32,000 nt of DNA from Burkholderia diffusa. GTDB lineage: Bacteria > Pseudomonadota > Gammaproteobacteria > Burkholderiales > Burkholderiaceae. This document shows positions 3,670 through 20,259 of this stretch, piece after piece. A model generated the notes under the pieces. The model was not told the origin of the DNA, searched no databases, and saw only the letters and a program-made list of their open reading frames with translations. Positions within the stretch are counted from its first letter, which is position 1; each line of letters opens with the position of its first letter. The position numbers were made by a program, and so were the translations under genes. The stretch spans positions 261,866-293,865 of the forward strand of contig NZ_CABVPN010000001.1 in NCBI RefSeq assembly GCF_902499115.1. Direction: 5' to 3'.

Positions 3670-3773
3670 GCACAATCGGACGGGATAGACGAAGCCACGT
3701 CCGTTTCATCGGGGGCCGCCATTTCGCCGGCCCCGTTTTACTGCCTGGTCGCGGGCAGCTAATGGAGAATCAC

Positions 3774-4382
3774 ATGAAAGTCGTCGCTTTCGAGCGCCAA
3801 CAGCAAGGTACGGGTGCGAGCCGCCGCCTGCGCAACGCCGGTAAGACCACGGGTATCGTCTACGGTGGCGAAGCAGCCCCGCAAAAGATCGAACTCGATC
3901 ACAACGCGCTGTGGCACGCACTGAAGAAGGAAGCCTTCCACTCGTCGATCCTCGACCTCGAAGTGGCTGGCCAGTCGCAACAGGTTCTGCTGCGCGACGT
4001 GCAATACCACCCGTTCAAGCAACTCGTGCTGCACGTGGACTTCCAGCGCGTCGACGCGAAGAAGAAGCTGCACACGAAGGTGCCGCTGCACTTCCTGAAC
4101 GCTGAAGTCAGCCCGGCAGTGAAGCTGTCGAGCGCAATCGTCTCGCACGTCACGACGGAAATCGAAGTCGAGTGCCTGCCGTCGGCTCTGCCGGAATTCC
4201 TGGAAGTCGATCTGTCGAAGATCGAAGCAGGTCAGTCGCTGCACGCGAAGGACATCGCACTGCCGAAGGGCGTGACGCTGGTCGCGCACGTCGACGCGGA
4301 AAACCCGGTTGTCGCATCGGCGACGGTCCCGGCTGGTGCCGTGTCGGACGCAGCAGGCGAAGGCGAAACGCCGGCTGCCTAA
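3774..4382 (+). CDS. rplY: 50S ribosomal protein L25 / general stress protein Ctc
   Basis: ATG at 3774 preceded by GGAGA (the ORF-track start at 3762 is probably too early). [32 protein letters not shown] is a typical L25 N-terminus. Acidic, Ala-rich tail. Confidence 0.9.
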
Positions 4383-4430
4383 ACGGCCGCCTACGCGCCC
4401 GTTCGATCCGTTTCAAGAAACGGTCGACAC

Positions 4431-4466
4431 AACCCGCCGCGGCTTGCCCGGCGGGTTTTTCTTTTT
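4431..4466 (+). terminator. Hairpin plus T-run after rplY
   Basis: AACCCGCCG...CGGCGGGTTTTTCTTTTT, about 50 nt after the rplY stop. Confidence 0.45.
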
Positions 4467-4502
4467 CTGCGCCCAGGCGGGCGCTGCCGCCTACGAAACG
4501 TC

Positions 4503-5102
4503 ATGATCAAACTGATCGTCGGCCTCGGCAATCCCGGGGCAGAATATACTGCGACGCGCCACAACGCCGGCTTCTGGCTGATCGACCAGCTCGCCCGCGA
4601 AGCAGGCGCGACGCTGCGCGACGAGCGCCGCTTCCATGGCTTCTATGCGAAGGCGCGCCTGCACGGCGAGGAAGTCCACCTGCTCGAGCCGCAAACCTAC
4701 ATGAACCGCTCCGGCCAGTCGGTCGTCGCGCTCGCGAGCTTCTTCAAGATCCTGCCCGACCAGATCCTCGTCGCACACGACGAACTCGATCTGCCGCCCG
4801 GCACGGTGAAGCTGAAGCTCGGCGGCGGCAGCGGCGGTCACAACGGCCTGAAGGACATCACCGCGCATCTGTCGTCGCAGCAGTACTGGCGCCTGCGCAT
4901 CGGCATCGGCCATCCGCGCGACCTGATCCCGGAAGGCGCGCGCGCCGGCGCGAAGCCCGACGTCGCGAACTTCGTGCTGAAGCCGCCGCGCCGCGAAGAG
5001 CAGGACGTGATCGACGCATCGATCGAGCGTGCGCTCGCCGTCATGCCGATGGTCGTCAAGGGCGAACTCGACCGCGCGACGATGCAGTTGCATCGCAACT
5101 GA
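4503..5102 (+). CDS. pth: Peptidyl-tRNA hydrolase
   Basis: 199 aa. [24 protein letters not shown] and GGHNGLKDI motifs. Confidence 0.95.
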
Positions 5103-5232
5103 CTGCGCACCGCACCGGCATGGTGCAACGTGCCGTCCGGCGCCGCCGGGCGGCGTCTCGGTCGTGCGCAATCGCGCACCGCCGCATCCACATGCGGTAA
5201 TCTGGTTGTTTTTGCCCGTCAGGAGCCAAGCG

Positions 5233-6381: not shown

Positions 6382-6681
<300 letters not shown>

Positions 6682-6738
6682 TTATAGCTTTTCAGCCTTC
6701 CGCACGGTCGTGCTAAATTCCCCGAAATCCATGTTTTT

Positions 6739-6777
6739 GAGTTGCGGCTGAGTTGCACAGGTGTTGCAGATTTTGCA
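6739..6777 (+). repeat. Iterated GAGTTGCA-like octamers (putative integrase arm-type sites), left copy
   Basis: GAGTTGCG-gct-GAGTTGCA-cag-GTGTTGCA-ga-TTTTGCA, preceded by CCATGTTTTTG. The same CCATGTTTTTG and two GAGTTGCA units occur at 20115-20149. Confidence 0.5.
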
Positions 6778-6811
6778 GCGCGCAAAGTCGAGATAGCACG
6801 CCACGCCATGA

Positions 6812-7036
<225 letters not shown>

Positions 7037-7073
7037 TAGTATTTCCCCATATCAAAAAAAGCTACGGGGCTAT

Positions 7074-7982
7074 ATGGCTGGTTTTCGCTATTACAACGTG
7101 CAGTTGCTTCCCATCAACGTGCACGAGCGGGGCGACGTCGGGAAAAAAGGGTATCAAACGTTTTTCGCCGGTCTGAAACAACGCGTCGTCAAGGCGGTAC
7201 AGGATCGCCGAGTTGAGGCAATCGCATACGGCCTTCGGAGCGGCCTACTCTTTTCGGCCTTCACCGTTGAGCCCGCCGACGATTACGCTCGCGGCAAATT
7301 TCTGAAATTCGACGTTGCCGAATCGGTCATAGACATCTACACCAGCCAGACCGTGTTCACGGCTTCCCCTGGCGCGAGCGCTCACCCGACGTACTTCCGG
7401 TTCGCCTTCGACTATGATCGGCACATCTTGGCAATCGAAGACACGCAGGGTCGGCTACCGTCGACTGGACAACTGATCAAGGCTTTATCGCATCTGCTTG
7501 AGCCGGTCCGATCTGACCTCTACCCAGAATACATTCTGACGATTGATCAGCTTACCGCAAGCGACGCCGTACAAAAAGTCTTTAAGGAAGCAAAGGGCTT
7601 CAGACGTGTTCACGTGACGGTCACGTTCGCAAATTCGGACAAATTCGTCCAGAGCTTGCAGAAAGAGCTTCGTGACAAGAATATCCATCAGGTTGAGCAT
7701 ATCGAAAAGGCGAGCAAGGGCAGCCTTATGGATTCACCAACCGAGTTCGGGAAATTCCTCTTGCAAATCGCTCAACGTTATGGGAACGCATCAATAAATT
7801 ACGTCGCGGGCCAAGGGAAAACCCTGAAACGAAAAATCTTTCGCATGAAGGATCACCCTGTTAGGCAAATCCTCAAGGAAGGAAAGAAGGAAACCGAACC
7901 TCAGTTCATCGATCGCGTATTCCAATCAATTCCCGGTGCCGAAAAGAAAGCCAGCGCGCCCGTAAACGACGCTCACGATTGA
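7074..7982 (+). CDS. Hypothetical soluble protein (302 aa), family not recognised
   Basis: ATG at 7074 is in frame with ORF 6753..7982. The upstream extension crosses the ferredoxin relic and a palindrome, so it is discounted. Protein-like composition, MAGFRYYNVQLLPINVHERG.... Stop 7980-7982 lies 8 nt before the next gene. Confidence 0.65.
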   Translation: MAGFRYYNVQLLPINVHERGDVGKKGYQTFFAGLKQRVVKAVQDRRVEAIAYGLRSGLLFSAFTVEPADDYARGKFLKFDVAESVIDIYTSQTVFTASPGASAHPTYFRFAFDYDRHILAIEDTQGRLPSTGQLIKALSHLLEPVRSDLYPEYILTIDQLTASDAVQKVFKEAKGFRRVHVTVTFANSDKFVQSLQKELRDKNIHQVEHIEKASKGSLMDSPTEFGKFLLQIAQRYGNASINYVAGQGKTLKRKIFRMKDHPVRQILKEGKKETEPQFIDRVFQSIPGAEKKASAPVNDAHD

Positions 7983-7990
7983 ACGCAAAA

Positions 7991-8614
7991 ATGTGGGACT
8001 CCATCCATCGATTTCTGTATGCGCTCTTGATCCGGGTTCCGATCTTGGGAGATGTCGTTCTCATCGTGAACGGTTACGCTTATGAGGGTGAGCACGACGC
8101 ACTGGTGAGATTCGCACCGCCAATGCACTGGTTTCGTCGAATTGTTCCGAAGCTCGTGCTATCTGGGCTTTTTGCAATTTGGATCACATGCAAGCTAACG
8201 TCGCACTTCAGCAAGCTCCCAGATCCGGCGACCAAGTTTACCGACATGCTAACTGGCATATTTCCCAATCTGCTTGGCTTCGGAATTGGGGTTTATGCGT
8301 TAATTTTCGCCCTACCCGAGTCTTTCTTTAAGTCTTTGCGAGGGGAGCGAAAAACAACGACGCAGACCGCTGGGCAGCCGAGTTCACCGCAAGCAAATTC
8401 CGAAACGCCTCCAAACATGATTAATGCGGATATGGCGTATCCGCTGGTCATGATAGCACTATCGATCGCTTTCGGTGCTTTCGTACAGTTCTTCATGACC
8501 ATTTTGAGCTTCTATGTCTCAGTGTGGCTGCTTTCATACTGCTTCGTCCTGATGCTTGAGCTGATCAGCCTAATTTACGTTTCCGCCTATAAGTCGATCA
8601 GTGACAAGCAGTGA
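7991..8614 (+). CDS. Hypothetical integral membrane protein (4-5 predicted TM helices)
   Basis: ATG at 7991; the track start at 7979 is TTG. Hydrophobic segments include LVLSGLFAIWITCKL, LLGFGIGVYALIFAL, YPLVMIALSIAFGAFVQFFMTIL and VSVWLLSYCFVLMLELISLIYV. A hydrophilic Q/S/T/P-rich loop separates them. Confidence 0.65.
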   Translation: MWDSIHRFLYALLIRVPILGDVVLIVNGYAYEGEHDALVRFAPPMHWFRRIVPKLVLSGLFAIWITCKLTSHFSKLPDPATKFTDMLTGIFPNLLGFGIGVYALIFALPESFFKSLRGERKTTTQTAGQPSSPQANSETPPNMINADMAYPLVMIALSIAFGAFVQFFMTILSFYVSVWLLSYCFVLMLELISLIYVSAYKSISDKQ

Positions 8615-8817
8615 AAAATGCGGCGAAACCGCGTCGTATGTGAATCCGCCACAAGTCCACGGAAGGTCTGTCAAACCAGCGCCTCGCTGCCTGCGACTGT
8701 CCATGTAATCGACATTTCCCCTACGGTTGGCCCAACGAGCCGCCAAGCGTTTCTCTAGCCGAATCGACACCAGCGCAGCCTCACGCTAAAGCAAAGCGCC
8801 AGAACGCCGTTAAATCG

Positions 8818-9513
8818 ATGCGGCAGCACGGCACGCGTCCTCCTCCGAAATTTCCTCAACATCTCATGATTGACACCGTACTTACACGCAAATTCGGCGA
8901 ACCTTTCCCAATCTTTGACTCGATCGAAGCGGCATCCGACGCAATCATAAAAGCGGCGTTTCGTCTCTACGTTGTGATGAACCCCAATCATTCGGCAGAC
9001 GATTTTCTAACGGAAATCCTCATACCTATAGCGCAGTCATCGCCTGAAAATCCCGCGCAGATCGAGGTTCGCGCATTCCAGAACCACTCGAAGCACTCAT
9101 TCATGATCTACATGCGGGCAATCTGCCATGCCTGCGCATACGTGCAGGCGGCGCGCAACGCTCACGAGGAAGGCCGCGACCGCGAAGGATGGTCCCATAT
9201 CGCCAACGCACACTATCTTCTGGGGTTCGCAGAGGGCGTTTTCGCGCTGGAACCTGCGCTGGTTGGTGTCATCTCGCGCCAAGGCAAGGCGGGCTCGACG
9301 GCGCGTAACGAAAAATATGACGCGTTGCGCCAATTCGCACGTGAGCTTGCTAAAAAGGGGGGCTACCCAAGCAAGCGTAATGCCGCGTTGTCCATCAAGC
9401 CGATGGTTCTAGCCAAAGCGAAAGCCGATGGAAAAGTAAATCTATCAGAAGCGCAGGCGGAACGCACCATTACCAAGTGGCTTGACGGTATGACGTTTGC
9501 CCGCAAACAGTGA
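8818..9513 (+). CDS. Hypothetical protein (start uncertain; alternative ATG at 8866)
   Basis: 231-aa ORF with protein-like composition. No recognisable motif. No convincing RBS at either candidate start. Confidence 0.5.
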   Translation: MRQHGTRPPPKFPQHLMIDTVLTRKFGEPFPIFDSIEAASDAIIKAAFRLYVVMNPNHSADDFLTEILIPIAQSSPENPAQIEVRAFQNHSKHSFMIYMRAICHACAYVQAARNAHEEGRDREGWSHIANAHYLLGFAEGVFALEPALVGVISRQGKAGSTARNEKYDALRQFARELAKKGGYPSKRNAALSIKPMVLAKAKADGKVNLSEAQAERTITKWLDGMTFARKQ

Positions 9514-9637
9514 ACCACTTACAGGCGAACGGTGTACGTGATGTAGAACACGGGATATTTTTTAAAGCCGCTCCGAAATAAAGTTTTCCTTGTCGATTAA
9601 CTGATCGACAATTATCTTAACTTTACAGGAGAATTTC

Positions 9638-10516
9638 ATGAACGCCTCCGCACAAATTTCGCGCATTACAAGTCGACGTAGACATAACCTCAAGGGCAAT
9701 CCCATGATTGCCCGCATCAAGATCGGCAGTCGCGATACACTGAACGTCAAGTGCAAAACGGAAAGTCGATCGCAAACGTCCGAGCCTCCCGAGCAACCAA
9801 CTACCAACAGCAAAAATTACGTCCGCCCCGCCTTTGATAAAGGCACTGTTCTACCGCAGTTTCGCGCCGCCCTTTCTGAAATTTCTGATCTCGGGAAGGA
9901 GATTACTGAAGTCGAGGAGGAATTTCGAACAAACATTCAGGATCGCGCTATTGCAGGGTTAGCGAAGATTCTTGAAGTACGCCGCGCATATTTCGATTCC
10001 GCCACCCCTGAGATCAGCAAAGTACTTCTCGACGATCTATATCAGCAGTGTAAAAACCATGGCCTCAAAGGTCGCACGATTAGAACGACCGAATTTCATC
10101 TTCTCTCGCGCTTGCTACGTAAATCGGATCGGAAACAGGCATCTGCCGACGCGAAAATCTTGATTCGAGCACACAACGAAGGACAATCGTCGGAGACTTT
10201 TCCTGAGTGGGTGAAGAAGCTTAATGGGCTAAACGCGATCAGAAAAGATATCGAATCTCACGAGAAGGGAAATCGCTCTAGTAAAGCTCGGAACGAGCTA
10301 GCTCATATCAAAAGGCAACTTTATGCGAGCGTGAAGAAAGGAACGGGATTTTGGTCTAGCCGCTTAGTCTTTCCATTTGATGGCCCACACGATACTTGGA
10401 CTGAATTGCTTCCGGAAGACAACTCATGGACAACGGTACTCGTCAAGAGAGAAGGGAATCAAGTGAAACTCTATGCTCTGCCGGCAGATGATAGTGATTC
10501 GCCGGCATCAACATAG
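9638..10516 (+). CDS. Hypothetical protein (292 aa)
   Basis: ATG preceded by CAGGAGAATTTC. Charged, helical-looking sequence with no recognisable motif. Confidence 0.6.
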   Translation: MNASAQISRITSRRRHNLKGNPMIARIKIGSRDTLNVKCKTESRSQTSEPPEQPTTNSKNYVRPAFDKGTVLPQFRAALSEISDLGKEITEVEEEFRTNIQDRAIAGLAKILEVRRAYFDSATPEISKVLLDDLYQQCKNHGLKGRTIRTTEFHLLSRLLRKSDRKQASADAKILIRAHNEGQSSETFPEWVKKLNGLNAIRKDIESHEKGNRSSKARNELAHIKRQLYASVKKGTGFWSSRLVFPFDGPHDTWTELLPEDNSWTTVLVKREGNQVKLYALPADDSDSPAST

Positions 10517-10584
10517 CCCACGTCGTGAAATTTTTAGGCTCCCCAGCTGATAATCGTCGGCGCCTTAAACTGAACTCATGCGGT

Positions 10585-10609
10585 GGAATGTCGGCCGGAC
10601 CGACATTCC
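10585..10609. repeat. Island palindrome copy a
   Basis: GGAATGTCGG-CCGGA-CCGACATTCC, with perfect 10-bp arms. Confidence 0.65.
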
Positions 10610-10847
10610 GAGCAACGACGAACATCGTCCACAACCGTGCCGGTGCTCGTTAAACAGAGAGGCGAACCGGGACGCCCGACTGCCCTGCTTTTCTTACGGA
10701 ACCGTTAGATTAGACCTTGGGGAGTAGCAAGCCAAAATCTCGTGCCTGCAAGCGACGCTCGCCGCTCTTGCGCTTGGCTCTGAATACGCTATACTTTTTA
10801 TATCGTTATAAATTTCATACCAGAACAGCCCTAATCCGGCCCACGCC

Positions 10848-11315
10848 ATGCGCGACTACCCACGGCAAGATATGTACGCGATCACCCACTTTCACAATTT
10901 CATGTCCTTGTACCAAGGACGCTTCGCAACCGCCCTTGCGAAAACCCTCAATACATCGGTGTTCGCAGCAAGTGCCCTCGACATCGCGCTGGCGACAGGT
11001 GCTATCTCACTCGACAAGCTGCATCTGCTGCTAGGATGCAGCCGAGGTCAGGCGATCGGCGGCGCTTTCGATCTGCAGGAACAGGGACTCGCCAAGGACA
11101 TCGAATCCACGAAAAGCCAGAGTGGGGAATACTTCCTCGTTCCCATCGATGAGCGATGCGAGGCCGCCCGGCTCTACCGGACAAAGCTGGAAAAATTGAG
11201 CCGACAGCAGGGCTTGTCTGATGCCTTCGACAAAACGCTGCCCGCTTTACAGGCAATCTTCCTGGAAGCGCTGTCCGCAATGGAAAGCAAACATATCAAT
11301 CAAAGCTCATCCTGA
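10848..11315 (+). CDS. Hypothetical protein (155 aa), possibly winged-helix-like
   Basis: ORF in low-GC island DNA. The segment ISLDKLHLLLGCSRGQAIGGAFDLQEQGLAK loosely resembles an HTH. Start uncertain. Confidence 0.45.
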   Translation: MRDYPRQDMYAITHFHNFMSLYQGRFATALAKTLNTSVFAASALDIALATGAISLDKLHLLLGCSRGQAIGGAFDLQEQGLAKDIESTKSQSGEYFLVPIDERCEAARLYRTKLEKLSRQQGLSDAFDKTLPALQAIFLEALSAMESKHINQSSS

Positions 11316-11909
11316 TACGATCCGTTTGTCCCCGTCGGCACCGTCTTTCCGCGTCATGTTGCGACGCTCGGCCGGGCTTGGAAGTACCGACAGCAGTATC
11401 TTGATGGTGTACAGGATGATTAGAGTGCCTGACAGGTCACCGACGAACATGGCAAAGAATCGTTCGCCAATGTTCGTCGTTTGCCCGCGCAACGCCAACC
11501 AGATGTTAGTCAACAGCGGATTCGCAACGGAAAAGGCAAGGGCTAGGACAAGCAATCGCTTCGGCGTGAGATTGGTCAGCGAGGCATGCAGGCCGTAATG
11601 CTCTCTTGCAAGCCGGTATGTCGCATAGGGAGCAACCGTCGCAATGATGCCACCAGCTATCGAGCGGATCGGATCGTTAGGAAAGAAGTACAGGAAGTCC
11701 ACCAGCCAGCTTGCTACAAGCAGGCCGATAGCGCCATCGCTACCGAGCAGCAATGTCGCAAGAAGCCTGACGCCCGACGGCAAGTAGATCCAGTTCACGC
11801 CACGCACGAACTCCGAATGCGTGAACACCTCTTGATTCACCCAGAGCGAAACAACGAAAACCAAGGCTGTGCCGATGACCGATGCGAACCGTAAGCGCCA
11901 GTTGCTCAT
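11307..11909 (-). CDS. Hypothetical integral membrane protein (~5-6 TM)
   Basis: Internal ATG at 11909 (MSNWRLRFASVIGTALVFVVSLWV...) is preferred over 12017, which would overlap the divergent regulator gene. Multiple hydrophobic helices. Confidence 0.55.
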   Translation of the reverse strand: MSNWRLRFASVIGTALVFVVSLWVNQEVFTHSEFVRGVNWIYLPSGVRLLATLLLGSDGAIGLLVASWLVDFLYFFPNDPIRSIAGGIIATVAPYATYRLAREHYGLHASLTNLTPKRLLVLALAFSVANPLLTNIWLALRGQTTNIGERFFAMFVGDLSGTLIILYTIKILLSVLPSPAERRNMTRKDGADGDKRIVSG

Positions 11910-12010
11910 TGAAGTACAATTCCCCGTTCCGATGTACACCGCCGACGCATCGATCTTCGTTTTCCGTACGGCGGTGTTAGCGTTCTGGTCAACGGAGCGT
12001 CGGACTCGAT

Positions 12011-12358
12011 ATGACACGCCCTGCTGATATCTACCTACGCTTTCTGCAACTTACTGAAGCCCTGCGCGGACTACCGTCGCTACCGGCGCTTGACCCACTC
12101 GAAGAAAAGATCCTTGAGTTCGTTGCTCGCATGACGCAAAAAAACGAGCGTCTCTCCGTACGCGACATGATGGCACAGAGTGATCTCGGTTCGCCGGCAA
12201 CACTGCACGCCCGACTCAAGTCGATGCGTGAAAAAGGCTGGCTCACACTTGGCGACACCGACGACTCGCGGCGCAAACAGATCGAACTCACTCCTGCCGC
12301 CCTAAAGCATTTCGATAAACTCGCCGAAGCGTTCGCCAGAGCCGCCAAGGGTACCTGA
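12011..12358 (+). CDS. MarR-like winged-helix transcriptional regulator (115 aa)
   Basis: LSVRDMMAQSDLGSPATLHARLKSMREKGWLTLGDTDDSRRKQIELTPAA has the HTH, wing and helix pattern of MarR-type proteins. Divergent from the membrane gene. Confidence 0.55.
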   Translation: MTRPADIYLRFLQLTEALRGLPSLPALDPLEEKILEFVARMTQKNERLSVRDMMAQSDLGSPATLHARLKSMREKGWLTLGDTDDSRRKQIELTPAALKHFDKLAEAFARAAKGT

Positions 12359-12369
12359 CTTCCCTCTGG

Positions 12370-12390
12370 ATTGTCGGTTAAACCGACAAT
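12370..12390. repeat. Island palindrome copy b
   Basis: ATTGTCGG-TTAAA-CCGACAAT. Part of a ~61-nt repeat (12353-12413) shared with 13567-13629. Confidence 0.7.
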
Positions 12391-12411
12391 TCGATCCGCC
12401 GCTCCGGAAAT

Positions 12412-12591
12412 TTACCGAACGGGCTTCATAGTGCCGTGACCTCCGCAACGCAAGCAACCGTCGTTGCTGCTCCAATTGTGGTTCGTACAGCGATGATCGC
12501 GGCATCCGACAGCGCCGCATTTCATGCAACGGTAGAGCGTCGCAGAGTGTTGACCTGCCTGATTGGGAATGCGACCTGCGCAACTTGCCAT
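12412..12591 (-). CDS. Small Cys-rich (zinc-ribbon-like) protein, 59 aa
   Basis: ATG at 12591 preceded by GGAGA. MASCAGRIPNQAGQHSATLYRCMKCGAVGCRDHRCTNHNWSSNDGCLRCGGHG contains CxxC...C...C...CxxC. Confidence 0.5.
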   Translation of the reverse strand: MASCAGRIPNQAGQHSATLYRCMKCGAVGCRDHRCTNHNWSSNDGCLRCGGHGTMKPVR

Positions 12592-12613
12592 GAGATTTTT
12601 CTCCGTAGGTTTT

Positions 12614-12856
12614 CTATACGTTCGTGACCCTGAATAGGCCTGCTTTGTCCGACGGCGCAAACCGGGCAATGCCGTTGCGCCGATTGAATAGTTGGACTGC
12701 TTTCTCAAAATACTGCTGATCGGTCAGCCGGTGCATGTCCTGTCCGAGCGACCAGCCGTTACCGAGTACGTGCGCCAGTTCCGGCCTGTTGTCATGCCTG
12801 AACGCAAGAGCAAACCGGCGACGTGCTTCTATCTGAGCAAAATTCGGGCGGCTCAT
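12614..12856 (-). CDS. Hypothetical protein, 80 aa
   Basis: Its ATG overlaps the recombinase stop (TGATG on the minus strand), suggesting translational coupling. No motif recognised. Confidence 0.5.
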   Translation of the reverse strand: MSRPNFAQIEARRRFALAFRHDNRPELAHVLGNGWSLGQDMHRLTDQQYFEKAVQLFNRRNGIARFAPSDKAGLFRVTNV

Positions 12857-13422
12857 CACACAAGATCCACGGCCTTGCGCTGCATGTCGTCGTTGACGTC
12901 GATGTATCGCTGCGTTGTCGAGATATCTCGATGTCCAGCAAGCGACATCAACACTCGCACGCCGACGCCCTTGCTTGCCAGATTCGTGATGAACGAGCGT
13001 CGGCCAGAATGGCTGCTTGCGCCTTGAATGCCCGCTTCCTTGTAGAGCCAGTGGAAGTACTGGCAGAGCGTGTTGGCCGTGAATCCGGCCCGCTTCTGCG
13101 TATAGAACAGCGGTTGTTCCGGTCGCGGATTCTTCAGGCTCGCAACATACGCGGCCAGCTCACGCCGCAATTTCTGCCCGAGGAAAACCGTGCGCGCATG
13201 TCGGCCCTTGGTCTGTTCTGGGGCAAGCCGGATTTCTGACTTGATCGAGCCATCCGTATCGAGCACGTCGCCCACGAACAGCGCGGCGACTTCTCCAACA
13301 CGCATGCCCGCCCAATGCGTCAGCAGCACCATCACTCGATTACGCAGCGCGTGACGTCGCAACGAGATATAGGTCAGTACCTGCTTGAGTTCCTTTTCCG
13401 TAAATGTCTTGGCCTGCTTCAT
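12856..13422 (-). CDS. Short tyrosine recombinase, catalytic domain only (188 aa, FimB/FimE-sized)
   Basis: ATG at 13422 after AGGGG. Full catalytic set: AGMRVGE (Arg), TKGRHART (Lys), HSGRRSF (His-x-x-Arg), LAGHRD (His), TTQRYIDV (Tyr). No N-terminal core-binding domain and no room for one before palindrome c. Confidence 0.8.
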   Translation of the reverse strand: MKQAKTFTEKELKQVLTYISLRRHALRNRVMVLLTHWAGMRVGEVAALFVGDVLDTDGSIKSEIRLAPEQTKGRHARTVFLGQKLRRELAAYVASLKNPRPEQPLFYTQKRAGFTANTLCQYFHWLYKEAGIQGASSHSGRRSFITNLASKGVGVRVLMSLAGHRDISTTQRYIDVNDDMQRKAVDLV

Positions 13423-13585
13423 TTCGCCCCTGAACAAATAAAAACCACGCCCAGAGGATGTATTCTTTAGTTATACGTATCAACAAATGAATGACACCGC
13501 GCAGATACCAGAGGAAACAAGCACTTGCGCAACAACCAAAGGTTTTAGCAAAAACCTTTAATTTCGACCTGATGCCGAAATGGAA

Positions 13586-13602
13586 TGTCGGTTAAACCGA
13601 CA
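13586..13602. repeat. Island palindrome copy c
   Basis: TGTCGG-TTAAA-CCGACA, with the same spacer and spacer orientation as copy b. Confidence 0.7.
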
Positions 13603-13904
13603 AGTGCGAGTGCGCTGCTGCGGAAATTTCTTGCTAACAACGCCGTTGAAGTGGAAACGGAAGTAAGGGGGAAGTGAAAAAGTAACAAATGTGATGTCGT
13701 CTGGCTATTTCTTATCGTATGTCCTACTCGACATTTGCTCTTCGCATTGCATCACATGTAGATATCTGTAATTTCTTCGAGCAGTTCTTCATCGGAATCT
13801 ATAACCGTAGTAAATCATTAAAGAGCCTCGCATGCTGAAGCTCTTCGTGTTGAAAGCTGCGAGGACATTTAGTCATCACGCAGCTAGGCGTTTCTGTCGG
13901 AACT

Positions 13905-14408
13905 TTATTCTTCGGGTATGTGGACGTTATCGTAGTCCACGTTGTCGGCGTCGCCTATGCCGACTTCTTTGGTGATGTAGTCGATCCAGCCTTCCGAGGT
14001 CAGAGATTGAATGTCGATCTGAACATTGCCGAAGTCTGTTTTAAGCCATGCGGTACGGATTGCACTGTCGATCAGTGCTTCGTCGGCACCTACGCGGAAA
14101 TTTCCGATCATACAGTGATAGTGCAGTTGCTTATTCGTTGCAAGACCTTCCAGAACAGGGATCACATGAACACTTGCACCGAATCGCTTGGCGGCGTTGC
14201 CGTACACGATGGAGTTCAGGCATTGAATAAATTGTCGGAAATTCTCTTTCGCCTCGATTTCCGTCAGATACCTTTGCATGAGCCCCTTGGGACCCATATA
14301 TTCGCAACGAGACTTCATCGTAAGCGTGACCGCATGAGTGAAATTAGATGCATGCTTACACATCCAATCCTGCGTCTCTTGCCTTAGTTTTTCGTTTTTG
14401 TTTGTCAT
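13905..14408 (-). CDS. HUH-motif Rep-like (rolling-circle initiator / inovirus Gp2-like) protein, 167 aa
   Basis: Three motifs in canonical order and spacing: FTHAVTLTM (motif 1, FxTLT-like), QLHYHCMIG (HUH), WIDYITKE (YxxK). Confidence 0.45.
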   Translation of the reverse strand: MTNKNEKLRQETQDWMCKHASNFTHAVTLTMKSRCEYMGPKGLMQRYLTEIEAKENFRQFIQCLNSIVYGNAAKRFGASVHVIPVLEGLATNKQLHYHCMIGNFRVGADEALIDSAIRTAWLKTDFGNVQIDIQSLTSEGWIDYITKEVGIGDADNVDYDNVHIPEE

Positions 14409-14521
14409 AGCCGTATTTATTTCAGCCAGGACAAAACAGCCTATATAACGTCGAAATTATGTTGATTTCACCAGTGGCCGAATACATCCTCCTCTGTATC
14501 GAAACGACATATGAGGCATAC

Positions 14522-14968
14522 ATGAGCGTAATTGCAAATCTGAAGATCGTCGCCGCTAAGCGTCCCGGCGCACTGCCGCAGATCGTACAGCGTCGTAACC
14601 GGCTGATCGCTCAAATCTGGGAACAGACGGAACTGGCGAAGGCTCAACAGGCCGGAACGTCGTTTACACCGACGAAGTTTCGCTCAGTTAAGGATGCCGA
14701 AACCGGCGAACGGCGTAACGTGGAAGTGCAGAAGCGCATTCGTGCTTGGTGGTGGACCGCAGAGAACGGCCGCGTCCACATGTTCGTCAAGTACGGTGCT
14801 AAGACGCTGGAACTTGCCAAGGGCAAGACGGCCATCGAGATCGGTGTTCTGGAAGACCTGATTCCGACGCTCGACACACTCAAGGCGGCAGTTACCGCCG
14901 GCGAACTCGATGCTCAGATCGAGGCTGCCAGTGGCCAGATGCGCTCAGGGTTTGTTAGCAAGAAGTGA
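14522..14968 (+). CDS. Conserved island-type hypothetical protein (148 aa)
   Basis: ATG at 14522 after GAGG. MSVIANLKIVAAKRPGALPQIVQRRNRL...RIRAWWWTAENGRVHMFVKYGAKTLELAKGK recalls, from memory only, proteins common on proteobacterial islands and ICEs. Confidence 0.6.
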   Translation: MSVIANLKIVAAKRPGALPQIVQRRNRLIAQIWEQTELAKAQQAGTSFTPTKFRSVKDAETGERRNVEVQKRIRAWWWTAENGRVHMFVKYGAKTLELAKGKTAIEIGVLEDLIPTLDTLKAAVTAGELDAQIEAASGQMRSGFVSKK

Positions 14969-14975
14969 AGTGCCT

Positions 14976-15000
14976 GGCAGGTCCGAACTTCGGACCTGCC
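14976..15000. terminator. Bidirectional hairpin between convergent genes
   Basis: GGCAGGTCCG-AACTT-CGGACCTGCC between the stops at 14968 (+) and 15010 (-). Confidence 0.5.
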
Positions 15001-15009
15001 ATTAATCAC

Positions 15010-15786
15010 TTATCGGTCTGTCGCAGGCTCTTGATACATTTTAAATCCCTCGACATGCTTGAGATCGAGCCGCCTGAATCGCATCAATCCCCCTTGAGAT
15101 GTTGGCCAAACACCTTTTATATCTGGCGAAACATGCACGGCATTTACACCGCCGCTGAGTTTTGTCGCATCCCACACACATGAACCGATGGCTTTAGGTT
15201 GATAGTTGCCGGGCACGCCTACTAAGGTGATCATCGCTTTACTCATCGCCAGTCCAACCCCAAGGGAAATTTCTGGCAGATTGTAGCGTTCCGCGATTGC
15301 GTCATTAATCAGCGTCCTCATACCACCGATACAGTCTTTCGCGGCACGGTATGCGAGCCGAACAGAACTTTCCCTATCGTCCTTGTCTACACTGAACAAT
15401 ACCAATCCGCCATCACCTAAATATTCTGTAACCATGCCATCTTTGAAGCCGCAGGTAACGGCGACAGCTGGGAGAAGTGCTGACGTTTCGTAGTAAACCC
15501 GTTGTAGCCCATTGACTTTCGCATTTTTTATATGCGTCTTGAGTCGTTGGGTGGATCCACGCATGTCAATTACCAGCGCGATAAACTCATCGACTTGCGG
15601 ATGATCTGCCGACACAACCCGATAACCCGGGATGTTTGAGTCGGCGCTGTCGGCAGCGTATGACTCCATTGACTTTTGTAGCCGTGCCTCTACCAACAAA
15701 TGCCCGACTTTTCTCCAATTGGACTCGGCACGATCGAGGCCTTGCTCGATCGCGGCACGCACCTTCGCAGTCTCATTATTGTTCAT
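15010..15786 (-). CDS. pycC: Class III nucleotidyl cyclase, Pycsar PycC-like
   Basis: Start ATG 15786 overlaps the upstream gene's stop (ATGA). Cyclase metal-binding motifs LVIDMRGSTQR and EYLGDGGLVLF. About 258 aa, single domain, paired with a cNMP-binding effector. Confidence 0.75.
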   Translation of the reverse strand: MNNNETAKVRAAIEQGLDRAESNWRKVGHLLVEARLQKSMESYAADSADSNIPGYRVVSADHPQVDEFIALVIDMRGSTQRLKTHIKNAKVNGLQRVYYETSALLPAVAVTCGFKDGMVTEYLGDGGLVLFSVDKDDRESSVRLAYRAAKDCIGGMRTLINDAIAERYNLPEISLGVGLAMSKAMITLVGVPGNYQPKAIGSCVWDATKLSGGVNAVHVSPDIKGVWPTSQGGLMRFRRLDLKHVEGFKMYQEPATDR

Positions 15787-16691
15787 CGATTTACTTTCGC
15801 GATGTGCGCGCGAACCTTCTTCCATGCTGCTGCCATATCGCGGTTCGGGGCATCATCGGATAGCTTTGCTGGATAGTCGATGGTTGTTACGCCAGCAAGA
15901 TCGCTCGGCAGCTTTATAGCTACGCCCTTCGGCTTCATCAAAATGGTTCGGCGGCGGCCAAGCCGTCCCATGAATAACCCAAGCTCGAATATGACGTTGT
16001 CTCGTGGGCTCGGGCTCCTCCCCTTGCGAGATGTTGTCAGATCATCATCTTGTGCGATTGCAATAGCAAAATCGGCCGTTTCAAGATGCTGTTCGAGGTC
16101 TTCGAGTGGATAACTGCTCACTCCAAAAACGTTGTCAGGCCAGTTCCAGAATCTGATATTTTCCTCATGCTCAAATGCAAGGACACCTGTTTCGGCGACC
16201 GGCAGAGCTTCAACTGAGGAAATCGCAAATACGTTTACCTTTTGATCTGCGCGGGCAAGTGCCTTGTTGCGTCGTTCCAAGCGACGCGCTAGCTCAGTAG
16301 CAATATGCTTGTATATCCGAGGAAATTGATCAGCCAACTCTATAAACTGAGACTCTGAGAGTTTGGCCGCCACAACAGTGCCATCGGCGACTACAGTTGC
16401 GGATCGCGGTAACGCTTCGATTGCGGCCATTTCACCCACGTGTCTACCCGCATCAACGCGATCAACCTCTTTCTTACCTACGACGATCTTCGTGCCACCG
16501 GTCAATAACAAGTAAACGTCGCTTGACTGATCACCCTGCACGATCAGCCTCTCGCCATCACGAAACTCGACAAGCTCACAGGTATCGGCCAGCCGCTCCG
16601 GCAAGCCGGGAATGTCCCGGCAAACTCCCTGCATTCCAAGCGCCTCAATGAGATTTTGACGACGCGCCTCTCCCTCGAACCTTTCTTTCAT
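15783..16691 (-). CDS. pycTIR: cNMP-binding domain fused to a TIR-like (CAP12/PycTIR-type) effector domain
   Basis: N-terminal cyclic-nucleotide-binding fold with phosphate-binding cassette GEMAAIEALPRSATVVA. C-terminal half has FAIAIAQDDDL...RDNVIFELGLFMGRLGRRRTILM...LPSDLAGV, typical of bacterial TIR-like NADase effectors. ATG at 16691; GTG at 16697 is also possible. Confidence 0.75.
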   Translation of the reverse strand: MKERFEGEARRQNLIEALGMQGVCRDIPGLPERLADTCELVEFRDGERLIVQGDQSSDVYLLLTGGTKIVVGKKEVDRVDAGRHVGEMAAIEALPRSATVVADGTVVAAKLSESQFIELADQFPRIYKHIATELARRLERRNKALARADQKVNVFAISSVEALPVAETGVLAFEHEENIRFWNWPDNVFGVSSYPLEDLEQHLETADFAIAIAQDDDLTTSRKGRSPSPRDNVIFELGLFMGRLGRRRTILMKPKGVAIKLPSDLAGVTTIDYPAKLSDDAPNRDMAAAWKKVRAHIAKVNR

Positions 16692-16826
16692 TATCACCCC
16701 GTTGCGTATAGCGAAATTTTCGTTCTTCGGCTAGCCAATGTACAACTGCAACTACGCTTCGTTAATTTGCAAGTATCGCGCATGGTGGATCACTCACGAT
16801 CGCCTCCCATATAAATACTCGCGCCA

Positions 16827-17030
16827 ATGACGGAGACAATGTCCATGCGATACCACGAAATCCTAGCTCGATCCGGTCTGTATGAAGTTGCAGACCTTGA
16901 ACAACAGCGCATCAAAGCGCAGCAGCAGGCTGCCAAGCGACAGACCGCCACCGCCAAGCGTGCGGACCTGACACACCGAATAGATAAGCTGAGGAAACAG
17001 CTTTCCGACCTCAACGCCAAGCCGATTTGA
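16827..17030 (+). CDS. Small coiled-coil protein (61-67 aa)
   Basis: ORF divergent from pycTIR. The best RBS (GGAGA) fits the third ATG at 16845. Q/K/A-rich heptad-like sequence. Its last codons lie inside a repeat shared with 18976-19020. Confidence 0.4.
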   Translation: MTETMSMRYHEILARSGLYEVADLEQQRIKAQQQAAKRQTATAKRADLTHRIDKLRKQLSDLNAKPI

Positions 17031-17042
17031 TCAGCCCTTGGT

Positions 17043-17065
17043 AAATGTCGGTCGACCCGACATTT
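17043..17065. repeat. Island palindrome copy d
   Basis: AAATGTCGG-TCGAC-CCGACATTT between convergent genes. Could also act as a bidirectional terminator. Confidence 0.65.
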
Positions 17066-17104
17066 GCAGTGAGCAAGAGCCGAGACTAAAGCCGAGGCAC
17101 TCGC

Positions 17105-17941
17105 TCACACTCCATTTCTCGCCGACTTGATGTCGAGGAGGTTGATTTGATCGATCTTGTCCTTGTGAATGACGATGGTCAATTTTGCCGGATACTTAAA
17201 TCGCATCTCGCTGATTCTGAATGTCCACAGCATTATTTTCAGCAAATCTTCATCGCCAATGTTCTTGTGACCTTTGATTCGCGTAATTCCCGACCCAAAG
17301 ACAGTGGTCGAAACGCTCTTTTGAGCGTACACATTGTTCACTTTATCCCAAAAATTTATCAAAAACTCCAGGTACTCCGGCATCGTCAGCAATGCCCTGT
17401 TGTTTTCATCGAACTTAGAGAATGCAGTAAGAAGATAATCCTTATAAAGACAAACTGTCCCGATTTGATATCGCCTCTTTTTACCCAGCTTTCTGGCCTC
17501 GTTACTTCCCACCACCTCACTGAGATCGAAAGCATAATTATCTATATAGTGATCCAATTCTGAGACAGGCGTACCGAGATGCTTCTGAATGAAGATACCG
17601 TTGAGGGACTTTTCGCCAATTATTTTATTGTCTACTAAAGTATCGAAGTACTCATTGAAAGCAATTGCTTTCAATCCCGATTCCTGAAATATATCGCCAA
17701 CCTTGACAGTGACATTACTTCCCTCTACGTCTATGTCGATGCTATTCAGATTGTTCGACCAAACCCACAGCGCCACGTAAATTACGGCTAACAACGCGAG
17801 GAAGATCCAACCACCGCGCAATTTCCAGTTAGCAGGAATATCAACAAATAGCACGACCACTGATAATGCACTGCCGATTACGGACGTGCTTCCAAGGAAT
17901 TTTTTGACAATTCGCTTATCAAAGAAACTTACCTTTGCCAT
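17105..17941 (-). CDS. thsA: Thoeris type II ThsA-like effector: 2 TM helices plus Macro-like domain
   Basis: N-terminal hydrophobic helices (LGSTSVIGSALSVVVLFVDI; GGWIFLALLAVIYVALWVW). These are followed by VKVGDIFQESGLKAIAFNEYFDTLVDNKIIGEKSLNGIF, which matches my recollection of the ThsA Macro family. Lies directly downstream of a TIR gene. Confidence 0.65.
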   Translation of the reverse strand: MAKVSFFDKRIVKKFLGSTSVIGSALSVVVLFVDIPANWKLRGGWIFLALLAVIYVALWVWSNNLNSIDIDVEGSNVTVKVGDIFQESGLKAIAFNEYFDTLVDNKIIGEKSLNGIFIQKHLGTPVSELDHYIDNYAFDLSEVVGSNEARKLGKKRRYQIGTVCLYKDYLLTAFSKFDENNRALLTMPEYLEFLINFWDKVNNVYAQKSVSTTVFGSGITRIKGHKNIGDEDLLKIMLWTFRISEMRFKYPAKLTIVIHKDKIDQINLLDIKSARNGV

Positions 17942-17971
17942 AGAGTTCGAAACTCGCTCGGGTGTTATTTT

Positions 17972-18535
17972 TTATGGCGTGTATCGATAGACATCGGGGT
18001 TCGCCTTACTCCCGACGACGAAGCCACTATTCAAAAGCGCACTTTTAATAACGCTTTTTTGCATAGGAACATGAAGTGTAGGCACGTTCTTCATTGAGTC
18101 GCGAAAAATAGGAAGATTGTTCCAGAGATTTTTCACCGTTTGCTTCAACGCCCCGTTCACCAGAAGGCTCTCCTTCGAGTCGTACTCGGGATATATAACG
18201 ATGACCGGCAGCCCTTGATCATTGATGCCATAGTCGATCTCTTCCCTGAGTGCCAAGGAATTTTTTGTGGCCGAGCTCAAAATTAGGACGATATTCTTCG
18301 AACTCCGAAGACGCTCCCTGAGTCGCGGCTTCAAGGTCAACTCCCAATTGCTACCGTCTCGGACGCTGTAGGTCTTGTCGTGCGCGTCATTAAAGGGAAA
18401 CGACGCGTCGGCCCCTTTCCACGTCCGAAGAAGGTTGTAGAAGCAGAAATCTTTCGTCGCATGAGCACCTAATGAACTAGGATTGAATGGCTCAGAGACA
18501 TAGAAGGCAGTGTAGTTTCCGTTTCGATACGCCAT
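17972..18535 (-). CDS. thsB: Thoeris ThsB-like TIR-domain protein
   Basis: 187 aa. MAYRNGNYTAFYVSEPF...YNLLRTWKGADASFPFNDAHDKTY...NIVLILSSATKNSLALREEIDYG is the bacterial TIR-like (DUF1863/ThsB) pattern. RBS GGGGAG. Confidence 0.7.
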   Translation of the reverse strand: MAYRNGNYTAFYVSEPFNPSSLGAHATKDFCFYNLLRTWKGADASFPFNDAHDKTYSVRDGSNWELTLKPRLRERLRSSKNIVLILSSATKNSLALREEIDYGINDQGLPVIVIYPEYDSKESLLVNGALKQTVKNLWNNLPIFRDSMKNVPTLHVPMQKSVIKSALLNSGFVVGSKANPDVYRYTP

Positions 18536-19000
18536 AACAACTCCCCTATGTGTAGGGAAAACGAGTGCATTCGAACTTCGATATGCATCACTTCTTGCAG
18601 TGATGCGAATTTATGACAGCTGCCCCGAGACAGCTGCAAATAACAACTGCGTCGGCGACCGAATACGCTCGGACTTGCTTGCAAATGAGCTGTCGGCATC
18701 GCAACGTTGAGGCCGCTTCGGAGCCTTTCGGCGATGTCTTGCTACTCTCGATCCGAGTGCTAACCGAAAACGGTCACTTGACTTGCAAGATTGTTTGCGG
18801 CCGAATGCGCTACCACATCGTACTTTTTGCCACCCCACACCGTCGCCGGTAAACACTACCGTAAACCTTTCATCAGATAAAGATCTGAACACAAAATACG
18901 CCGGAAAAACGCTTCCGTCACGCAAGATGTCGTACTCCGCAAGCCATGCACAACTCGGTGTCCGTTCCCGAATCGCAAGCCGATCTGACCAGCTTTCGGT

Positions 19001-19025
19001 AAATTGTCGGTCGAACCGACGTTTT
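19001..19025. repeat. Island palindrome copy e (imperfect outer arms)
   Basis: AAATTGTCGG-TCGAA-CCGACGTTTT. Part of a ~45-nt repeat (18976-19020) matching 17018-17061. Confidence 0.6.
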
Positions 19026-19031
19026 GGAAGA

Positions 19032-19069
19032 ACGAAGCCCTGTTCGCACGTAATCGAACAGGGCTTCGT
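19032..19069 (-). terminator. Strong hairpin downstream of the integrase gene
   Basis: ACGAAGCCCTGTTCG-CACGTAAT-CGAACAGGGCTTCGT, a 15-bp stem about 60 nt after the integrase stop. Confidence 0.45.
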
Positions 19070-19130
19070 CGTCAGAGAATTGCATTTTTCGAGGTTTCTC
19101 TTGTGTACGGTATACACAAGTTATCAGGAC

Positions 19131-20117
19131 TTATCCGAGCTTCTTCGCCAGTTCGCTCGCCGACGTGTGGTAGTACCGACTCAGCATCTGAACGTTCGAA
19201 TGTCCGGTCACGGATGCAAGCTCGATCACGTTCGGCAGCTTTTTAGCAAGACTCGTCGTTGCCATATGCCGTAGATCGTGAAAGTGAAAGTTTTCGATTC
19301 CGGCACGCTTGCACGCTCGCGGCCACGCACACAAGACAACGTTCTGGCTGATCGGAATAACGCGCTCGTCGATGCGCTCCAACCCCTCCAGAATCGCAAT
19401 CGCGGCACTGCTCAATGGAACATACCGATCCCTACCGTTTTTCGTCATCGGCAGATAGGCCGTGCGCTGATCGAAATCGACGTGCCTCCATTCCAGAGAC
19501 AGCAATTCGCCCTGCCGCATCGCTGTCTCCAGCGCAAGCTTCGCGAGCGGGAGCAGCCACCTGCTCCGTAATTCATGGCGCTCCGCATGCAGTTCATGCA
19601 GGAGGCGATCAAGCTCGGCAGGCTTCAATATGCGATTCCGCCCAGGCGGCAATCGGGGCTTTTTCACAAGCTTCGTCGGATTGCTTACTGAGAGTCCCCA
19701 TTCACGTTGCGCATGCGTGATCACGGCGCTGATCGTCGCGAGTTCGCGACAGACGCACGAGTTGGTAGCCACCTTGAGACGTTGATCGCGGTAATCGGCC
19801 AACAGACTGGCCGTCAGATTGCGCATGCTGTACTCGGCGATCTTGTGGCGCAGCATTTTGCCGATCCGATATTCTTCGCTGCGCCTGCTACGCTTGGTCG
19901 GCGTGATCGATTCCTTGTAACGCTCCAGCAGTTTGCCGAAGGTTATGTCGGTCGTACCTGCCGGATCGACCCACGTTCCGTCGTCCATCGCGGCTTCGAC
20001 GGAACGTGCCCAGGCTTGCCCTTCTGCCTTCGTTGCAAATGATTTGTACTGCGTAGGAAATCCCTTGCGATTAATTTTGACTTGCCAGCGTCCGTTGCGC
20101 TGACTGAATGTAGCCAT
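19131..20117 (-). CDS. int: Tyrosine-type site-specific integrase (328 aa)
   Basis: N-terminal MATFSQRNGRWQVKINRKG arm/core-binding region. Catalytic ETAMRQGELLSLEW (Arg), HFHDLRHMATT (HxxR), VTGHSNVQMLSRYYH (His, Tyr). Its start lies ~108 bp from attR. Confidence 0.9.
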   Translation of the reverse strand: MATFSQRNGRWQVKINRKGFPTQYKSFATKAEGQAWARSVEAAMDDGTWVDPAGTTDITFGKLLERYKESITPTKRSRRSEEYRIGKMLRHKIAEYSMRNLTASLLADYRDQRLKVATNSCVCRELATISAVITHAQREWGLSVSNPTKLVKKPRLPPGRNRILKPAELDRLLHELHAERHELRSRWLLPLAKLALETAMRQGELLSLEWRHVDFDQRTAYLPMTKNGRDRYVPLSSAAIAILEGLERIDERVIPISQNVVLCAWPRACKRAGIENFHFHDLRHMATTSLAKKLPNVIELASVTGHSNVQMLSRYYHTSASELAKKLG

Positions 20118-20130
20118 GTTTTTGCCTCTG

Positions 20131-20149
20131 AGTTGCAGTTGAGTTGCAA
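20131..20149 (+). repeat. GAGTTGCA x2 (putative integrase arm-type sites), right copy
   Basis: GAGTTGCA-gtt-GAGTTGCA, 14 nt upstream of the integrase start codon. Confidence 0.5.
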
Positions 20150-20223
20150 AAACATGATTTCGGACAATTGGAAAAGCTGGAAAGCCTCAGCCCACGGTCA
20201 AGTCAATGATATGACCCCAATTT

Positions 20224-20259
20224 TCAATTGATGCACTCGTCGGTAATCATCAAAGACAT
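20224..20259 (-). pseudogene. Displaced native 5' stub of the ferredoxin gene
   Basis: The minus strand reads ATG TCT TTG ATG ATT ACC GAC GAG TGC ATC AAT TGA ([11 protein letters not shown]). High-GC backbone sequence begins immediately upstream of it. Confidence 0.75.
20225..20252. repeat. attR core (28-bp direct repeat)
   Basis: CAATTGATGCACTCGTCGGTAATCATCA, identical to 6614-6641. Confidence 0.85.

Follow-up and report, generated by a model that had tools for sequence, protein, structure and literature searches.

A cyclase–effector gene pair in a Burkholderia integrase island resembles PucsarTIR and would probably signal with cyclic GMP

In a preprint of August 2026, Pucsar was described as a sister clade of Pycsar-1, and two of its systems were characterized: PucsarTIR of Pseudomonas fluorescens (PfPucC and PfPucTIR) and PucsarTM of E. 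coli (EcPucC and EcPucTM), the effector of the latter being a 183-residue three-helix membrane protein that makes a hexameric pore (bioRxiv 10.64898/2026.08.12.744502). Both PfPucC and EcPucC convert GTP to 3',5'-cyclic GMP (cGMP) in vitro, with cGMP as the only product, and PfPucTIR is selectively activated by cGMP, the response to cyclic AMP (cAMP), cyclic CMP (cCMP) or cyclic UMP (cUMP) being much weaker or absent (same preprint). The other close relatives are the Pycsar systems with a TIR effector, of which we compared BcPycC/BcPycTIR, PsPycC/PsPycTIR and NpPycTIR (Tal et al. 2021, summarized in PMC11224242; PDB 7R65, 8JSJ, 8JSK); here a BcPycC-type cyclase makes cUMP, and the general logic runs from the cyclase through a 3',5'-cyclic nucleoside monophosphate (cNMP) to an NADase that joins a cNMP-binding domain (CNBD) to a TIR domain, and so to abortive infection. 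In this study we set beside these systems a pair of genes from a 32,000-nucleotide stretch of Burkholderia diffusa (NCBI RefSeq assembly GCF_902499115.1, contig NZ_CABVPN010000001.1, positions 261,866 to 293,865 of the forward strand), which we call the window. The pair encodes a CNBD–TIR effector and a nucleotidyl cyclase, and we read it, with a probability of about 0.8, as a PucsarTIR-type abortive-infection system whose signal would be cGMP. The product, the activation of the NADase, the filaments and the protection against phage are predicted by homology to the two systems of that unreviewed preprint. The features of the pair are:

15783 to 16691, minus strand: CNBD–TIR effector gene, 302 residues, identified by Pfam, PADLOC and PDB matches and by the effector tree
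16326 to 16571, minus strand: CNBD core, effector residues 41-122 (PF00027 cNMP_binding, 1.8e-13)
15873 to 16235, minus strand: TIR domain, effector residues 153-273 (PF10137 CAP12/PycTIR TIR, 4.1e-27)
15010 to 15786, minus strand: pucC-like cyclase gene, 258 residues, an N-terminal helix followed by a single class III cyclase domain
15783 to 15786, minus strand: ATGA overlap of 4 bases between effector stop and cyclase start, junction cgATGAac
14975 to 15001, minus strand: hairpin with a 12-bp stem, starting 9 nt past the cyclase stop, between the convergent cyclase and DUF6641 genes

The case for cGMP is built mainly on the family to which the cyclase belongs. We located the characterized Puc proteins indirectly, using the published residue numbers as a fingerprint: for PfPucC the guanine-recognition pair E118/K195 and the metal-binding D70/D122, and for cGMP-bound PfPucTIR the residues E86, R95, R136 and R140, among others (bioRxiv 10.64898/2026.08.12.744502). 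Homologs of the window cyclase in Pseudomonas, 252 residues long, carry D70, E118, D122 and K195 at the published PfPucC numbers. At one locus, L001 of Pseudomonas lundensis, all 17 of the 17 published PfPucC and PfPucTIR residues stand at their exact numbers, 13 of 13 in the effector (E11, E14, E86, R95, R136, R140, R152, D166, Q170, S192, S193, Y194 and R288), and L001 is therefore the characterized PfPucsarTIR or a close relative of it. Similarly, E. coli 4/1-1 (L147) encodes, just upstream of a cyclase, a 183-residue membrane protein with the EcPucTM residues K4, Q16, F98 and Y166 (4/4). Given these fingerprints, both cGMP synthases, or near-copies of them, fall inside the family of the window cyclase, which is 51% identical to the PfPucC-like enzyme of L001 and 48% identical to the EcPucC-like enzyme of L147. 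The window cyclase scores 410 bits on a hidden Markov model (HMM) of this family and does not match an HMM of the Pycsar-1 (BcPycC-type) cyclases. In a neighbor-joining tree rooted on the Pycsar-1-type cyclases it lies with the Pf-like enzyme in a TIR-linked subclade, and the Ec-like enzyme belongs to a group, linked to transmembrane (TM) effectors, that branches more basally, so that the two cGMP producers bracket it. The resemblance to PucsarTIR also includes a cyclase of about 255 residues with the pattern D...E-x-x-x-D...K (D74, E121, D125 and K198 in the window), and that to PucsarTM the EYLGDG and PKA(I/F)G motifs together with an effector gene upstream.

The initial annotation had taken the cyclase for a single-domain class III enzyme, and this was supported by PADLOC, by a family profile and by the predicted fold, while the general cyclase family PF00211, by which the initial annotation had proposed to check it, gave nothing. 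Neither Pfam (PF00211 Guanylate_cyc included) nor NCBIfam had a match to the protein at E <= 1, which made profile and fold searches necessary. The PycC models of PADLOC match it weakly (2.1e-9 at best), and the sole match of a single-sequence search of the PDB is the two-domain PaPycC (6yii, 0.0044). A profile of 37 homologs finds CyaC (6.9e-8) and Cya2 (2.5e-6) among the PDB entries, and the PycC structure 7r65 at 0.066. The AlphaFold2 model of the cyclase (predicted local distance difference test score, pLDDT, 89.6; predicted template modeling score, pTM, 0.86) gives Cya2 as its best Foldseek match (6.6e-11), followed by CyaC (1wc1, 3.6e-10) and, at about 1e-8, the PycC structures 8jsf and 7r65; photoactivated and soluble adenylyl cyclases are matched as well, and together with Cya2 and CyaC they span 1e-8 to 7e-11. 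To judge from these matches and the predicted fold, the window protein is a class III cyclase, although a divergent one. Like Cya2 (PDB 2W01) and CyaC (1WC0), the best structural matches to the model, it has two metal-binding Asp residues, but identity to them is only 14-20%, it has an extra N-terminal helix (residues 3-33), and it differs from both in its Lys at the second specificity position and in having W205 in place of Asn and K209 in place of the transition-state Arg. The last two substitutions are family-wide, the ribose-positioning Asn being replaced by Trp, Phe or Tyr (W205, at 15172-15174) and the transition-state Arg by Lys (K209, at 15160-15162). Such substitutions may explain why PF00211 misses the family, and possibly lie behind the Mn2+ requirement of its characterized members.

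The residues predicted to read the base agree with the placement in the family. D74, E121, D125 and K198 are invariant in the 37 cyclase homologs. E121 occupies the first canonical purine-selectivity position of class III cyclases, and it aligns with the specificity Glu of the guanylyl cyclase Cya2 and with Lys of the adenylyl cyclase CyaC. The second selectivity position is taken by K198, aligned with Gly in Cya2 and Thr in CyaC. A different signal could also be considered, with cAMP or several cNMPs as the product and a broadly tuned effector. At the second position known guanylyl cyclases have Cys or Gly and adenylyl cyclases Asp or Thr, and K198 fits neither class; W205 stands where the ribose-positioning Asn is canonical, ATP preference is predicted for another subclade (bioRxiv 10.64898/2026.08.12.744502), and the basal member L051 has Lys and Glu swapped at both specificity positions. 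However, the Glu and the Lys, besides being invariant across the 37 homologs, are identical in the two enzymes that make only cGMP, and the described TIR effector responds far less, if at all, to the other three nucleotides; we therefore hold such a mixed or cAMP-based signal to be very unlikely. Two relatives deserve mention in their own right. The most basal member, L051 (Chryseobacterium potabilaquae, with its cyclase at about 2280-3014), has Lys/Glu in place of the Glu/Lys pair, which resembles the K/D pattern of adenylyl cyclases, and this may be a cAMP-producing relative. In the cyclase of L050, the Lys is replaced by Ile.

The initial annotation had proposed a pyrimidine cyclase making cCMP or cUMP, with the choice between the two not readable from the sequence. 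In this classical Pycsar arrangement, the CNBD–TIR effector would be a cyclic-pyrimidine receptor, and there is something to be said for it: the PADLOC PycC models do match the cyclase, the PycTIR models span the full effector, and the effector shares homology with PycTIR, a receptor of cUMP (8jsj/8jsk), and 47-50% identity with effectors whose partner is a BcPycC-type cyclase. The cyclase itself argues otherwise. Its similarity to the solved PycC structures is not detected by single-sequence search, and even the family profile reaches 7r65 only at the value given above. UTP selection in BcPycC involves Y50, D94 and R97, and CTP selection in EaPycC involves F100, R142 and Q144 (PMC11224242). 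At the aligned positions the window has L123 (D94 and Q144), G126 (R97) and E121 (R142), the alignment at Y50/F100 being unsure. The 'YDGDR' motif of Pycsar-1 cyclases is absent from the window cyclase, which has an invariant 'EYLGDG' instead. With a guanylyl-cyclase-type Glu at the first specificity position and a cGMP-producing enzyme on either side of it in the tree, the window protein is probably not a pyrimidine cyclase, as far as such alignments can tell. The nucleotide thus appears readable to a useful degree after all: membership in the Puc family, the E121/K198 pair and the lack of the D94 and R97 of BcPycC all favor cGMP over a cyclic pyrimidine, and we regard the classical Pycsar reading as unlikely.

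The effector has the domains that had been proposed for it, a cNMP-binding domain at the N-terminus and a TIR-like domain at the C-terminus, with PF00027 and PF10137 both matching. The CNBD core contains the phosphate-binding cassette G86-E87-M-A-A-I...R96-S97-A98, with the lid-helix residues R137, R141 and N142 just downstream of it, and the TIR domain carries an invariant DNVIFELG motif, in which E236 is presumed from the alignment to be the catalytic residue, and the filament-contact residues S192-S193-Y194. PADLOC models of PycTIR and effector TIR proteins match over the full length (1.4e-94 to 4.7e-104), and the PDB search finds PycTIR 8jsj at 1e-45. The PfPucTIR residues E87, R96, R137, R141 and S192-Y194 (window numbering) are all kept. 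In PsPycTIR, cUMP is held by G86, E87, R97, S98, R138 and N143 (PMC11224242). These contacts and the PfPucTIR ones together map to G86, E87, R96, S97, R137, R141 and N142 of the window. S98, R138 and N143, the residues that read uracil in PsPycTIR, are thus kept as S97, R137 and N142, but they are found equally in the cGMP-specific PfPucTIR-like protein. We considered reading the ligand of the effector from its CNBD contacts, and dropped this approach because the residues are identical in the cUMP-specific and the cGMP-specific receptor; the ligand cannot be read from contacts that both share.

What does separate the effectors is their phylogeny, together with one alignment column and one indel. 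We gathered 94 open reading frames (ORFs) for CNBD–TIR effectors with their flanks, typed the adjacent cyclase with the two HMMs (family and Pycsar-1), and built a tree from the 88 sequences that were distinct and near full length. In it, the effector of the window falls together with those of L059, L001 (Pf-like), L063, L011 and L013, all of which adjoin Pucsar-type cyclases, and apart from the 41 effectors linked to Pycsar-1-type cyclases, so that each of the two window proteins shares its clade with the counterpart from the Pf-like locus. Column 79 of the alignment is Arg in 41/41 Pycsar-1-linked effectors and in 0/9 Pucsar-linked ones (V79 in the window), and the Pucsar-linked effectors, including that of the window, have a phosphate-binding loop shorter by one residue than that of the Pycsar-1-linked ones, with the caveat that 3 or 4 of the 9 Pucsar-linked effectors are close relatives of the window. 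The missing Arg is a further point against a cyclic-pyrimidine receptor. Overall identity was also tried as a separator and fails, while the loop indel, column 79 and the tree do separate the two groups.

Several points weigh against the PucsarTIR reading and its cGMP signal. The assignment of cGMP rests on one unreviewed preprint and on two members whose identity to the window cyclase is in each case only about 50%, and the assays of PfPucC and EcPucC needed Mn2+ (bioRxiv 10.64898/2026.08.12.744502). The cyclase and effector trees are simple neighbor-joining trees, without support values. The overall identity of the window effector is slightly higher to the Pycsar-1-linked effectors, at 47-50%, than to its Pf-like counterpart, at 42%, and its R137, R141, N142 and S97 are the same in cUMP-specific PsPycTIR as in the PfPucTIR-like protein. 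The effectors of L010 and L007-L009 nest among the Pycsar-1-type effectors despite the presence of a Pucsar-type cyclase. Lastly, PfPucTIR residues of the CNBD-CNBD and zig-zag interfaces, and R288, are not kept, the changes being E11 to N13, R152 to N153, Q170 to L171 and R288 to K292. Since the window effector is nearer the cUMP-type PycTIRs, keeps the uracil-reading Ser and Asn and has lost these interface residues, it could be hypothesized that the pair is not a plain copy of PfPucsarTIR but has a multi-cNMP response or a different assembly, and that it is functionally coupled to the type II Thoeris system that lies beside it. The TIR protein ThsB of Thoeris needs NAD+ to make its signal, and the two systems could thus be coupled through a shared NAD+ pool, either layered or mutually exclusive. 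We regard this elaborated version as quite unlikely.

The relatives also include loci in which both kinds of cyclase occur together. In L007 (Caballeronia jiangsuensis), L008 ('Burkholderia peredens') and L009 (Paraburkholderia ginsengiterrae), a three-gene operon consists of one CNBD–TIR effector, then a Pycsar-1-type ('YDGDR') cyclase, then a Pucsar-type ('EYLGDG') cyclase, and the effector mixes diagnostic residues of the Pucsar- and Pycsar-1-linked groups. Such a locus may be a dual-signal (cUMP + cGMP) system, and, in favor of the elaborated version above, the two-cyclase loci would suggest that dual-signal effectors exist in the family. A different combination is found in L056/L057 (Sphingobium fuliginis), where four genes at 1164-5163 encode a 512-residue two-domain cyclase (PaPycC/6yii-like), an E2-like protein (PF20298, PF20272), a CNBD–TIR effector and a Pycsar-1-type cyclase. 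This locus resembles the E2-associated 'Pycsar-like-4' (bioRxiv 10.64898/2026.08.12.744502) but has a second cyclase.

As to gene structure, both genes lie on the minus strand where the initial annotation had placed them, with the effector stop and the cyclase start overlapping as ATGA, and every motif it had quoted was found: VIDMRGST (residues 72-79, with D74) and YLGDGG (122-127, with D125) in the cyclase, and GEMAAI...RSATVVA (86-102) and NVIFELGLFMG (232-242) in the effector. The effector reading frame opens with the ATG at 16691 and closes with the TGA at 15783-15785. The mechanical ORF begins two codons further upstream, at a GTG at 16697, but the ATG was chosen because M1 of 'MKERFEG' is invariant among the homologs, which begin 'M-K/I-ERFEG'. 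The cyclase runs from the ATG at 15786-15784 to the TAA at 15010-15012; some gene callers report a 271-residue ORF from an ATG at 15825, and we prefer the 258-residue form because the homologs start at the ATGA and the frame in L001 cannot extend upstream. The same ATGA junction is present in L001, L005, L006 and L013, with TAATG in L011 and a 4-base overlap in L063. From this arrangement, co-transcription with the effector first and translational coupling through the overlap are probable. The hairpin behind the cyclase (-29.3 kcal/mol, z = -7.8, with 0/200 shuffles folding equally well in the RNA fold) is likely a transcription stop, though it has no canonical T-run and was not picked up by the scan for consensus terminators. 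Around the operon, consensus promoter and terminator scans gave nothing above chance. Plus-strand ORFs that overlap the pair (e.g. 15632-15919 and 15880-16113) had no support and were treated as spurious.

The placement of the effector first, with its sensor domain at the N-terminus, had been remarked on in the initial annotation. This arrangement is present but does not distinguish the pair. Where a Pucsar-type cyclase stands beside a CNBD–TIR effector, it follows the effector gene on the same strand in 12/12 cases, and Pycsar-1-type cyclases do so in 41/48, 35 of them immediately adjacent; in about 30 loci of the TM type, the cyclase comes directly after a three-TM effector. A CNBD at the N-terminus is standard for PycTIR proteins (PMC11224242). 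The window pair shares with the Pycsar systems with PycTIR the 'M-x-ERFEG' extension, the phosphate, ribose and lid residues of the effector and the usual gene order, and it departs from them in the cyclase and, in the effector, in the missing column-79 Arg and the shorter loop. Compared to PucsarTIR, the effector-first order and the stop/start overlap are the same, and the differences lie in the modest identity of both proteins, in the interface residues and in the setting, a Burkholderia-type host and an integrase island beside Thoeris II.

Taking the characterized systems as a guide, we can envision the following pathway. Upon phage infection, a homodimeric class III cyclase would convert GTP to 3',5'-cGMP, with D74 and D125 supporting two-metal catalysis and E121 and K198 reading the guanine base. 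The cGMP would bind the N-terminal CNBD of the effector, where G86, E87, R96 and S97 would hold the phosphate and ribose, R137 would stack on the base and R141 would contact it. Binding would free a self-sequestered effector oligomer, which would then stack into filaments through TIR-TIR contacts at S192, S193 and Y194 and so form composite NADase sites. The resulting depletion of NAD+ would leave the infected cell unable to support further phage growth. The Pycsar logic of the initial annotation, a cyclase coupled to a cNMP-gated TIR effector, is retained in this scheme; its cyclic-pyrimidine signal is disfavored relative to cGMP.

The pair lies in an integrase-bearing island, and its surroundings have the following features:

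6614 to 20252: low-GC island of 13.6 kb, GC about 0.51 against about 0.67 outside
17105 to 18535, minus strand: type II Thoeris system, complete, immediately upstream of the pair
17972 to 18535, minus strand: ThsB, TIR-like (PADLOC 1.3e-76, PF08937)
17105 to 17941, minus strand: ThsA, two N-terminal TM helices and a Macro domain (PADLOC 2.4e-125, PF20016)
19131 to 20117: tyrosine integrase, within the island
12856 to 13437: short tyrosine recombinase of 193 residues, catalytic domain only, within the island
13905 to 14408: Rep-like protein, weak PF23343 match, within the island
14459 to 14968: DUF6641 protein, convergent with the cyclase, within the island
16827 to 17030, plus strand: small ORF of 67 residues, coiled-coil-like, divergent from the effector
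6753 to 11315, plus strand: five co-oriented island ORFs of 409 (DUF4747), 211, 231, 292 and 155 residues

A perfect direct repeat of 28 bp, CAATTGATGCACTCGTCGGTAATCATCA, marks both ends of the island, at 6614-6641 and 20225-20252. It corresponds to the 5' end of a ferredoxin gene, and the island therefore appears to have integrated into the gene start, between fdx and coaD. The island in which the pair sits is horizontally acquired, and identical islands are present in at least 3 NCBI genome assemblies. The closest named relatives, Burkholderia vietnamiensis (L005) and B. seminalis (L006), have the same island, and in B. vietnamiensis, compared with the window and with L140-L144, it carries 97%-identical Pucsar genes without the Thoeris pair; GC in the window reaches its minimum, 0.44, in the Thoeris stretch. 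In L143, an insertion sequence (rve transposase, 348 residues) lies between the cyclase and the DUF6641 gene. The Thoeris-free island and this insertion indicate that the cargo of the island is variable.

This setting bears on the possibility that the pair serves no defense function, being instead a housekeeping cNMP signaling pair or a decayed remnant. The designation 'hypothetical protein' that the cyclase has in most records would be compatible with it. However, neither ORF is disrupted, every catalytic and ligand-binding residue is conserved, the effector domain is an NADase TIR of the Cap12/PycTIR type, the pair stands in a low-GC integrase island beside Thoeris II, and the same pair recurs on plasmids and variable islands across phyla, with family members on Acinetobacter, Klebsiella and Enterobacter plasmids. 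We find a non-defense role hardly credible. Membership in CBASS was considered also. The TIR domain belongs to PF10137, as in CBASS Cap12, and PDB Cap12 chains match the TIR half of the effector (9lmq, 3.8e-16), but the sensor is a CNBD and not a SAVED- or STING-type domain. The NCBIfam Cap12 models give 84 bits against a cut-off of 450, and this membership was rejected; of the island genes that were compared with PADLOC, none proved to be a CD-NTase.

The ORF at 16827-17030 is conserved (80-100% identity) only in Burkholderia islands; this ORF and the DUF6641 and Rep-like genes were rejected as parts of the system because they occur in Burkholderia islands only and not beside other family members. 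The three genes at 12856-14968 resemble what is left of a second small element, integrative or replicative, with the defense genes sitting next to it. The five ORFs at 6753-11315 had no PADLOC match and no Pfam match besides DUF4747, and are possibly uncharacterized cargo; genomes vary at this end of the island (L140 compared to L141/L142). Outside the island, a tRNA-Gln (UUG) gene at 2528-2604 lies in a lower-GC stretch (0.57) of the high-GC left flank.

Pucsar itself has already been described, very recently, and the window pair is otherwise ordinary defense-island cargo. What it adds is a member of Burkholderia type that shares about 50% identity with the two characterized systems. PADLOC would file the pair under Pycsar, and for the cyclase Pfam and NCBIfam would offer no name at all; a Pycsar label would imply a cyclic-pyrimidine signal. 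The comparisons above provide a sorting rule for CNBD–TIR loci, in which 'EYLGDG...PK(A/V)xG' as opposed to 'YDGDR' in the cyclase, and the absence of the column-79 Arg in the effector, point to the Pucsar type. The distinction between cGMP and a cyclic pyrimidine matters for predicting which phage counter-defenses, cNMP nucleases or sponges, would be effective against such a pair, and the cGMP reading matters for counting how widely cyclic-purine immune signaling has spread.

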